Virus record (IMG/VR): IMGVR_UViG_3300050821_008578
Span: 14,262-78,261 of that record
Direction: 5' to 3' (one strand)
Origin: a virus
Length of the DNA: 64,000 bases
Below are positions 27,096-28,501 of this stretch, one piece after another. A program made the position numbers and the translations under genes. The notes under the pieces are model-generated. The model was given only the letters and a program-made list of their open reading frames with translations, was not told the DNA's origin and searched no databases. Every line of letters starts with the position of its first letter. Position 1 is the first letter of the stretch.

Positions 27096-28118
27096 TTATA
27101 TTTCCAAATCTTTATATTGATTAAGTTCAGGTAATGTTCCTGTATCCAAAAATATATTCATTCTTGATTTATCTATTTTCTCGTTTACTATAGTATTACC
27201 ATTAGGAACACATTCTTTCATCCAGTCATAAATAATATTAAAATCTACCCCATAAAAATATGTTTTAGATTTATCAATATCCTCTAACAGTCTTGCCAAA
27301 TAATAACCAAGATAACGTCCATCTTTACGTCTAAATAATTTTTTAAATGAACATAAAGCAGTTTCAACATAGAAATAATCTACTTTAACATCTGGAAATC
27401 TTAGTTTAATCTCATTTATAATAGAATCAGTTTCATAATCAAACCATTTTATCATAGCTGAAGTATATTTAACTGATTGTTTTACTTTTTTAGTTCCATT
27501 ATCTATATAAATTCTAGATGCTAATTCTGGTTTATCAAGAATATAACATAATCCATCAGTAGGACTTTGAGTATTCATGCCAAATTGTATTGAAGTTGGT
27601 TCAATATTTAACCCACAACAGTATTTAAGATGTTGCATATAAAAGAATAAAACATATCTACCAAAATATCTAATATTACTTAATTCAGATTTAAGTTTAT
27701 TATAATTTACTTTAGGATCATCACTATTACAAATATCTTTGAAATATTGTTCTTGTGTTCTACCAGCTAATAGATCTTTATAACTAGAAATAATTAAATC
27801 TAATTTACCACGATTCCATTTTACATCCGATTGATGATGAATCTGTTTGTAATTGTTTCTATTCCAAACTTTAATATCTTCTAAATCAATATTTTCAAGA
27901 TCTGGAATATAATTGAATATAGCATAAGCTGAAGCGGCATCATAAGTAATACCATAAAGAAGACAGAAATAATATCGCTGTTCTAAATTATATTCTTGTC
28001 TTTCAAATAAATAATTAGTAACAGGAATAGCAGTATCTATATCATTATTCCTATACTGCCATACATAATATTTTATAAATGCTTCTCTACGATTCTCAGG
28101 TAGGCGAAAATCCATCAT
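27096..28118 (-). CDS. Amino acid:DNA transferase (aGPT-Pplase clade 2)
   Basis: Motifs 'DFRLPENRREAF', 'EQRYYFCLLYGITY', 'FGRY..FFY' and 'ETALCSFKK.....RYLGYY'. Confidence 0.88.
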   Translation of the reverse strand: MMDFRLPENRREAFIKYYVWQYRNNDIDTAIPVTNYLFERQEYNLEQRYYFCLLYGITYDAASAYAIFNYIPDLENIDLEDIKVWNRNNYKQIHHQSDVKWNRGKLDLIISSYKDLLAGRTQEQYFKDICNSDDPKVNYNKLKSELSNIRYFGRYVLFFYMQHLKYCCGLNIEPTSIQFGMNTQSPTDGLCYILDKPELASRIYIDNGTKKVKQSVKYTSAMIKWFDYETDSIINEIKLRFPDVKVDYFYVETALCSFKKLFRRKDGRYLGYYLARLLEDIDKSKTYFYGVDFNIIYDWMKECVPNGNTIVNEKIDKSRMNIFLDTGTLPELNQYKDLEI

Positions 28119-28501
28119 TTATCCAGATATGAGCGTTTACTTCCAGGACTATCAATAATAACTACACAATTATCTGAACCACATTTACATTGAAATGATG
28201 TAGATAATTTACTTTCATTATCTAAATAATTAAAAGTTATTTCTTCTCCAATGCTAATATATTTTTTAGCCCTCATAACTCTATTAGTTTTATCTACATA
28301 ACAATTTGGTGAACAACTATGATTTGTATAAGCACCCCATGGATTTACAACATGTAAATTGGGTGATAGTTCAATTGAACGTAAACTAGAATTTTGAGAA
28401 AATTCACCCATATCTAAATTAAATACTTCTGCATCTGGTAAGAATAGATTATTAGCAACTAATGATACTTGCCCAAATTTATTTTTCTTGAATGTTAACA
28501 T
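28115..28501 (-). CDS. SET-domain methyltransferase with post-SET Cys cluster
   Basis: Motifs 'NHSCSPN', 'GEEITFNY' and 'FQCKCGSDNC'. Confidence 0.92.
   Translation of the reverse strand: MLTFKKNKFGQVSLVANNLFLPDAEVFNLDMGEFSQNSSLRSIELSPNLHVVNPWGAYTNHSCSPNCYVDKTNRVMRAKKYISIGEEITFNYLDNESKLSTSFQCKCGSDNCVVIIDSPGSKRSYLDK

Follow-up and report, generated by a model that had tools for sequence, protein, structure and literature searches.

A SET-domain gene coupled to an amino acid:DNA transferase gene in the thymidine-hypermodification cluster of an uncultured phage

Why would a phage place a gene for a SET-domain protein inside an operon for thymine hypermodification? The question is raised by a 64,000-nucleotide stretch of DNA (hereafter the window), which spans positions 14,262 to 78,261 of IMG/VR record IMGVR_UViG_3300050821_008578. 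This record from an uncultured phage is 78 kb long, has 28% GC, and carries a CheckV completeness estimate of 42%. The gene occupies positions 28115–28501 on the minus strand and lies between genes for a GNAT acyltransferase and for an amino acid:DNA transferase (AADT). The cluster is of a type already known, but enzymes of the SET class had not been connected with such clusters before, and the SET protein probably has some role in the hypermodification pathway. We favour a pathway role because the gene is coupled to AADT, because this adjacency persists through rearrangement, because the genes have diverged together, and because the SET gene is restricted to one AADT subclade.

The SET gene is real, far beyond chance. 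It encodes 128 amino acids that match the Pfam SET profile PF00856 (E value 6.6e-10; score 39.8 bits, with the gathering cut-off at 22.4). The ATG start codon at 28501–28499 (−) follows an AGGAG Shine-Dalgarno sequence at 28508–28512 (−), which is located 6 nucleotides 5′ of the start codon and within the 3′ end of the GNAT gene. This choice of start is supported by the Met-Leu N-terminus common to close homologues. The TGA stop codon at 28117–28115 is joined to the AADT start codon (28118–28116) as ATGA, and the final 23 nucleotides of the GNAT open reading frame (ORF) fall inside the 5′ end of the SET ORF. Thus, the overlap with both neighbours that was given in the preliminary description is borne out, at 4 nucleotides with AADT and 23 with GNAT. 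Its naming of the neighbours is also correct, as the upstream ORF (28479–29126, −) matches Acetyltransf_1 with an E value of 1.4e-8 and the downstream gene (27096–28118, −; aGPT-Pplase2) matches PF18724 with an E value of 2.4e-19.

All three of the motifs reported earlier are likewise intact in the translation. The NHSCSPN motif (residues 60–66; 28304–28324, −) would supply the Asn-His pair that binds S-adenosylmethionine (SAM) and, with Cys63, a fourth zinc ligand. The GEEITFNY motif (residues 85–92; 28226–28249, −) carries the predicted active-site residue Tyr92, and the post-SET motif CKCGSDNC (residues 105–112; 28166–28189, −) has the canonical CxCxxxxC form, such that its cysteines together with Cys63 are predicted to form a zinc cluster. 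An alignment of 81 homologues shows no variation at H61, C63, Y92, F103, C105, or C107 and very little at N60 and C112. The N-terminal GxG loop for SAM binding is represented only by G10-Q11 (KFGQVS), and neither residue varies within the close subfamily. The SET-I insert is reduced to a minimum. A C-terminal tail that follows the post-SET motif (residues 113–128; 28115–28165, −) is conserved in the close subfamily as G-x-I/V-G-x-x-x-S-x-x-S/T-Y/H-L; the ordinary SET profile does not reach this tail.

An AlphaFold2 model based on the 81-sequence alignment has a mean pLDDT of 96.3 and supersedes an earlier model from a 5-sequence alignment (pLDDT 54). Foldseek matches this model at a probability of 1.00 to BurB, ASH1L, SETD2, and MLL. 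With its profile match, its NHSC and ELxFDY-type motifs including the Tyr, its SET beta-fold, and its predicted post-SET zinc cluster, the protein belongs to the SET family. At an E value of 1e-3 or better, 6,299 library relatives are recovered. The ESM Atlas yielded generic bacterial SET clusters only.

SET is the sixth gene in a co-directional run of eight, in which every junction is an overlap or a gap of at most 5 nucleotides. The run consists of genes for a class II glutamine amidotransferase (GATase), an amidoligase, a MazG-like protein, another amidoligase, GNAT, SET, AADT, and a P-loop kinase for 5-hydroxymethyl-2′-deoxyuridine (5-hmdU) in DNA. No convincing terminator was found between GNAT, SET, and AADT. 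The SET/AADT junction is bridged by fragments identical to the window (28077–28235 and 28058–28370) in contigs of sequencing runs that carry the soil-metagenome label, with shares of 0.43 or less. These fragments argue only weakly against an assembly join because the runs may include the source sample of the window itself. No RNA run appeared among the listed runs that contain this stretch.

A second phage reveals that the pairing of SET with AADT is not peculiar to the window. A 38-sequence AADT alignment retrieved 80 AADT loci from IMG/VR, among which GATase is present in 68, GNAT in 56, the amidoligase pair in 22, and SET in one. The locus with SET (L008) also carries the closest AADT relative in IMG/VR, which is 42% identical to that of the window. 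In L008, SET is located directly after AADT and either overlaps it or is separated from it by 1 nucleotide, depending on the start codon. It is followed by an opine-dehydrogenase-family gene, an unknown gene, a gene for a group II pyridoxal-phosphate (PLP) decarboxylase, and the kinase gene, and GNAT is absent from the cluster. The adjacency of SET and AADT has therefore been kept despite a switch of sides and different accessory enzymes. Compared between the two phages, the SET proteins share 38% identity, the AADTs 42%, the amidoligases 41–43%, the thymidylate-synthase-like proteins 42%, and the kinases 35%. Because the value for SET lies inside the 35–47% range of the other eight shared genes, its divergence fits co-inheritance with its neighbours. 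The L008 SET protein lacks the C-terminal tail noted above.

The region between SET and the kinase gene in L008 (11402–14891) encodes an opine (octopine/nopaline) dehydrogenase-family protein (PF02317, E value 1.6e-22), a 352-amino-acid protein of unknown function, and the PLP decarboxylase. To our knowledge, opine dehydrogenases have not been reported for thymidine-hypermodification pathways.

The GC content at third codon positions (GC3) of the SET gene is 0.10 in the window, where its neighbours range from 0.10 to 0.17, and it is 0.31 in L008 and 0.66 in a bacterial contig described below. In each of these three carriers, the GC3 of SET equals that of the neighbouring genes. The proteins nevertheless remain 38–63% identical, and the gene is therefore old in each genome and under purifying selection.

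In a phylogenetic tree of AADT sequences, those encoded with SET fall in a 14-row group that is split with 99% support from a 37-row clade, and this clade contains every other IMG/VR locus sampled for the tree. A search of metagenomes provided 109 AADT homologues. The second-closest AADT (P0007) and a SET protein (P0279) are each 60% identical to those of the window, and both are located on 12,193-nucleotide JGI/ENA contigs from the same sources, which points to a third co-occurrence of the two genes. Two other pairs of contigs with near-equal lengths (7,981/7,983 and 4,695/4,697 nucleotides) were considered as co-occurrences, but such matches are at chance level and were not counted. Of 69 other viral SET loci in IMG/VR, only that on the L008 contig is accompanied by AADT, and others have SET beside genes for an ATP-dependent ligase, Pol III alpha, or asparagine synthase. 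These distributions make SET an accessory specific to the lineage of one AADT subclade; it does not belong to the core of the clusters, nor was it inserted at random. Its confinement to a single subclade is the mark of a lineage trait rather than a sporadic insertion.

What the SET protein might do in this pathway can be proposed from characterised homologues of the other enzymes. The phage would make DNA containing 5-hmdU, the kinase would phosphorylate this base, and AADT would put an amino acid or an amine in place of the phosphate. Elaboration of the appended group would then fall to the amidoligases with GATase, and to GNAT. The SET protein would methylate a nucleophilic atom of this side chain while it is attached to DNA, and the likeliest target would be a terminal, lysine-like primary amine. 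The product would be an N-methylated hypermodified thymine, possibly multiply methylated and permanently cationic. The catalytic activity, substrate, and stage of action given here are those that we infer. Our reading of the SET protein as a SAM-dependent tailoring methyltransferase that acts on the DNA-attached side chain is tentative, and it may well prove wrong.

This proposal is modelled on a functional analogy with PaMx11 gp48, a GNAT-family 5-aminomethyl-2′-deoxyuridine (5-NmdU) N-acetyltransferase (Lee et al. 2021, PMC8989533). Both are small proteins encoded beside AADT and a 5-hmdU kinase, and gp48 modifies the amine that the appended group presents on the DNA polymer, as would the SET protein. 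The two differ in fold and in that gp48 uses acetyl-CoA rather than SAM, and its activity was demonstrated in vitro whereas that of the SET protein is predicted. For characterised tailoring enzymes, this small GNAT among them, the substrate is the appended amine within the DNA polymer (PMC8989533). Because every characterised enzyme of this kind works on the polymer, action on DNA is the favoured option if the SET protein has a pathway role. The SET channel suits a tethered lysine-like chain. Furthermore, each of the two phages encodes an enzyme from a family whose usual substrates include amines, namely GNAT in the window and the opine dehydrogenase in L008. These enzymes may cap the same side chain as SET, which would then be amine-rich.

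Several observations weigh against methylation of a side chain on DNA. No SET was detected in 79 of the 80 related IMG/VR AADT loci, all of them more distant than L008, and clusters without SET on this scale indicate that the protein performs an accessory tailoring step at most. A tblastn search with the window SET protein gave no match among 50,697 phage records, 284 of which carry AADT, and adjacency of the two genes has been read from DNA in two phages only. The protein is small and neutral to acidic (isoelectric point 7.6 in the window and 5.8 in L008), and that of the window has no DNA-binding domain. The isoelectric point was dropped as a weak test of DNA binding, given that AADT itself has a value of 6.4. 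The nearest solved structure by both profile and fold is that of BurB, an enzyme whose substrate is a free amino acid. Lastly, searches with PF18724 of two Ignavibacteria genomes that carry close SET homologues recovered no AADT, although the same search detects AADT in the window. This type of SET protein is clearly useful in cells without hypermodified thymine, and the family clearly has a substrate other than modified DNA.

The co-occurrence of SET and AADT across phages had been put forward in the preliminary description as a check on its proposal, and the outcome is divided. The adjacency in L008 and the restriction to one subclade speak for the association, while the 79 IMG/VR loci and the 284 cultured AADT phages in which SET was not detected speak against it. 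The absence of SET from related clusters, or its presence as a sporadic insertion, had been named, together with a failure to detect a methylated base, as counting against a role in base modification. Most clusters do lack SET, but its distribution is that of a one-subclade trait and is not sporadic. The central claim, that the substrate is an amine on a modified thymine in DNA, stands in part: gene context supports a role in the pathway, whereas the kinship with BurB, the Ignavibacteria homologues without AADT, and the small non-basic protein tell against this particular substrate.

BurB of Burkholderia thailandensis (PDB 9l4t and 9l4v) is a SET-domain L-methionine S-methyltransferase of the DMSP/malleicyprol pathway (PMC12542666). 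Its existence makes the view that SET domains methylate only Lys or His side chains of proteins out of date, and establishes a precedent for a non-protein substrate of the SET fold, since the methionine that it S-methylates is free. BurB is the top Foldseek match (TMq 0.83) and is also the best match of the SET family profile to the PDB (9l4t, E value 3.4e-27, compared to 9.4e-20 for the best histone methyltransferase). It shares with the window protein a compact single-domain architecture, the post-SET CxCxxxxC motif, and an identical spacing between the active-site Tyr and the zinc motif. Tyr92 of the window protein aligns with Tyr124 of BurB, whose Y124A mutant is inactive (PMC12542666), and G10-Q11 align with the gating loop Gln37–Ala44. 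BurB demonstrates that this small bacterial SET group can use substrates that are not proteins.

Judged by its sequence, however, the window protein is not a BurB orthologue. The two are only ~20–30% identical, the NHSC motif of the window replaces LLHSC, and the one-residue Ser88 insertion of BurB, expected of a methionine S-methyltransferase of this type, is absent. The NHSC and EEITFNY sequences are of the canonical lysine-methyltransferase type, more so than the BurB motifs. BurB is encoded in a polyketide/DMSP cluster rather than in a DNA-modification operon, and nothing indicates methionine as the substrate of the window enzyme. The S-methylmethionine decarboxylase, aminotransferase, and dehydrogenase of the BurB pathway (BurI, BurD, and BurE) have no counterparts in the window cluster, and the PLP decarboxylase of L008 is located in a DNA-modification cluster.

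This kinship raises the alternative that the SET protein N- or S-methylates a free amino acid or amine in the cytoplasm, that AADT or an amidoligase installs the product on 5-hmdU DNA, and that the SET protein never touches DNA. Because BurB methylates a free amino acid, a step before transfer is on that ground equally plausible as a step on DNA. A shared metabolite substrate would fit the ~60%-identical Ignavibacteria homologues without AADT, and the small, non-basic nature of the protein agrees with it as well. Adjacency to AADT fits the supply of a donor as well as it fits the tailoring of a product, and L008 pairs SET with a group II PLP decarboxylase in an arrangement that recalls BurB and BurI. 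However, such decarboxylases are common in these clusters anyway, all characterised tailoring steps take place on DNA, and the amino acids used by AADTs are plain ones (PMC8989533). The low identity to BurB, the retention of the canonical Asn of NHSC, and the missing Ser88 insertion also count against the alternative. In addition, BurB binds its substrate weakly, with a KM of 16.6 mM (PMC12542666), and an affinity this low would carry a high cost if enough product had to be made for modification of an entire genome. Overall, we consider methylation before transfer to be somewhat unlikely.

The bacterial homologues mentioned above are closer in sequence to the window SET protein than is the copy from L008. 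One is found on a 4.1-kb contig with 52% GC (L007), where it is 61% identical to the window protein and is preceded by three genes, including one that is cysteine-synthase-like and one for a ferredoxin; two tRNA genes lie next to it. Two metagenome-assembled genomes of Ignavibacteria (L153 and L154) carry SET proteins with 58–59% identity at a syntenic chromosomal locus on contigs of 129–164 kb with 56% GC. Only three of the 151 sampled genomes of the class Ignavibacteria carry this type of SET, and therefore the gene is patchy in the class and has probably moved horizontally. In a SET tree based on ~144 columns, the window sequence groups with the L007 and Ignavibacteria-type sequences in a well-supported clade of six, and the L008 sequence belongs to a branch that neighbours this clade within one subfamily of 15 rows. 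The small bacterial SET proteins, which include the L153 and L154 copies and Chlorobium-type sequences annotated as protein-lysine N-methyltransferases, share with the window protein an LRTIEL motif and the conserved tail after the post-SET motif. They differ in that their genes are chromosomal and AADT is absent from both the locus and the genome. Scans of IMG/VR and GTDB genomes for further SET proteins by N-terminal patterns found nothing.

A cysteine-synthase-like (PALP) gene near SET in all three bacterial loci was considered as a hint of amino-acid metabolism. This hint was rejected because the L007 copy is not closely related to those of L153 and L154, which are encoded on the strand opposite SET. 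Three other relatives with 56–57% identity from short ENA contigs (P0114, P0280, and P0281) share an N-terminal extension of 70–145 residues that seems to be of low complexity and may represent either a targeting peptide or an error in calling the start. Moreover, some of the best profile matches (P0115–P0117 and P0119–P0120) are proteins of 600–1,479 amino acids with five to eight tandem copies of the compact SET domain.

A substrate that is not a DNA base could also be a protein. By this account, the SET protein is a lysine methyltransferase for a phage or host protein, such as a nucleoid or replication protein or AADT itself, and its gene is placed in a DNA-metabolism module for timing. Proteins are the substrates of nearly all SET enzymes that have been characterised, the window motifs belong to the canonical lysine type, and a PDB search with the window sequence on its own ranks a fungal H3K36 methyltransferase first (E value 1.2e-8). 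The bacterial homologues without AADT need a substrate other than DNA. Viral SET genes elsewhere also adjoin replication genes, namely those for a ligase and Pol III alpha. Yet two phages retain the adjacency to AADT although the rest of their clusters differs in arrangement, and the gene is limited to one AADT subclade. The fold is nearer to that of the small-molecule enzyme than to those of ASH1L and SETD2 (TMq ~0.7) or the viral histone methyltransferase vSET (0.49). Finally, the retention of ~60% identity across hosts whose GC content spans 28% to 56% argues against a host-specific protein target. We regard methylation of a protein as unlikely. A prediction of an AADT-SET complex gave a score of 0.00, which counts neither way and was not used as evidence.

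The vSET protein of Paramecium bursaria chlorella virus 1 (PDB 3kma) resembles the window protein as a minimal viral SET of ~120 amino acids, and SET proteins of giant viruses are its next-nearest viral sequence relatives (37–44% identity over the core). In contrast to the window protein, vSET has no post-SET zinc cluster, and it methylates histone H3 of its host, whereas the window phage infects a prokaryote.

At one of the viral loci that adjoin asparagine synthase (L091, 5104–8831), the SET gene (6810–7175) abuts an asparagine synthase gene (GATase and Asn_synthase domains) and follows a gene for an AurF-like di-iron oxygenase. Viral SET proteins may thus have a second context in which small molecules are handled.

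Certain members of the SET family lack catalytic activity. The window protein could similarly be an inactive binding module or a neutral hitch-hiker with no role in methyl transfer, and most related clusters do function without SET. Even so, all of the catalytic and zinc-binding residues are conserved across relatives with 38–63% identity, and the protein sequence has been held while GC3 spans 0.10 to 0.66, which indicates strong purifying selection. The gene is also preceded by a ribosome-binding site of its own, and its translation is coupled to that of AADT. A passenger of this kind is very improbable.

If the tailoring reading is correct, the window protein would be the first SET-fold enzyme to act on nucleic acid, N-methylating the lysine-like terminal amine of a thymine side chain derived from an amino acid or peptide. 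In this specific form, the proposal is possible but rather doubtful. It would imply a DNA base, as yet undescribed, that is methylated and perhaps quaternary with a permanent positive charge, and the reuse of a histone-type methyltransferase fold for DNA-base chemistry. Thymidine-hypermodification clusters draw on a combinatorial toolbox of kinase, AADT, PLP, radical SAM, FAD, and GNAT enzymes, in which amidoligase and glutaminotransferase genes are listed as unknowns (PMC8989533 and a second main pathway paper). Neither of these two papers names a SET or other methyltransferase among the tailoring enzymes. A full-text search for SET domain together with hypermodification or hydroxymethyluracil returned no paper that links them, although this search did not cover Iyer et al. 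2013, which may mention SET.

Any action of the SET protein in the pathway would widen the set of enzyme classes involved and would probably mean that a further methylated base exists, with a bearing on restriction evasion and on DNA-labelling chemistry. It would also extend the SET fold beyond protein Lys and His and free methionine, and would provide a testable handle on many small bacterial SET proteins. If the enzyme instead methylates a protein, it would be a modest addition to the known viral SET proteins.

The remaining genes of the cluster, all on the minus strand, were assigned by Pfam and PHROG matches. Upstream of GNAT are the class II GATase (31034–31819), the first amidoligase (30255–31046), the MazG-like pyrophosphohydrolase (29947–30249), and the second amidoligase (29123–29950). 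The P-loop 5-hmdU DNA kinase (HMUD2) that ends the run is located at 26281–27093 (PF18747, E value 2.3e-28). A precursor module of three genes (20686–23701) is found 3–7 kb further on, among genes for ligase, ribonucleotide reductase, PolA, helicase, topoisomerase II, and an intein-bearing RecA. It comprises a thymidylate-synthase-like gene that is a candidate dUMP hydroxymethylase (20686–21783; Thymidylat_synt, E value 1.4e-12), a gene for a candidate deoxynucleoside monophosphate kinase (21783–22397), and a gene for an HMUDK helical-domain protein (22802–23701; HMUDK_hel, E value 8.6e-53). Two of the three are supported by Pfam matches, and all three have counterparts in L008. HMUD2, AADT, HMUDK_hel, and the thymidylate-synthase-like gene all lie within 8 kb, which is the clustering expected of hypermodification tailoring enzymes.

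The HMUDK helical domain and the P-loop kinase are encoded by separate genes that are 2.6 kb apart in the window, with an NAD-dependent ligase gene between them. Their counterparts in L008 adjoin each other (14888–15742 and 15714–16703). Fusions of PolA with uracil-DNA glycosylase have recently been described for phages with T-modified genomes. L008 encodes such a protein (3892–6813), which combines a family A DNA polymerase with a uracil-DNA glycosylase domain. The PolA protein of the window (36577–39612, −) is 1011 amino acids long, and its N-terminal 560 residues have no Pfam match. The RecA-like gene of the window (46404–48629, −) is split by an intein with an HNH endonuclease, and a comparable intein with HNH is present in the gene upstream of PolA in L008 (1727–3892). 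ARAGORN also called an 86-nucleotide tRNA-Ser with anticodon CGA at 33827–33912 (−).

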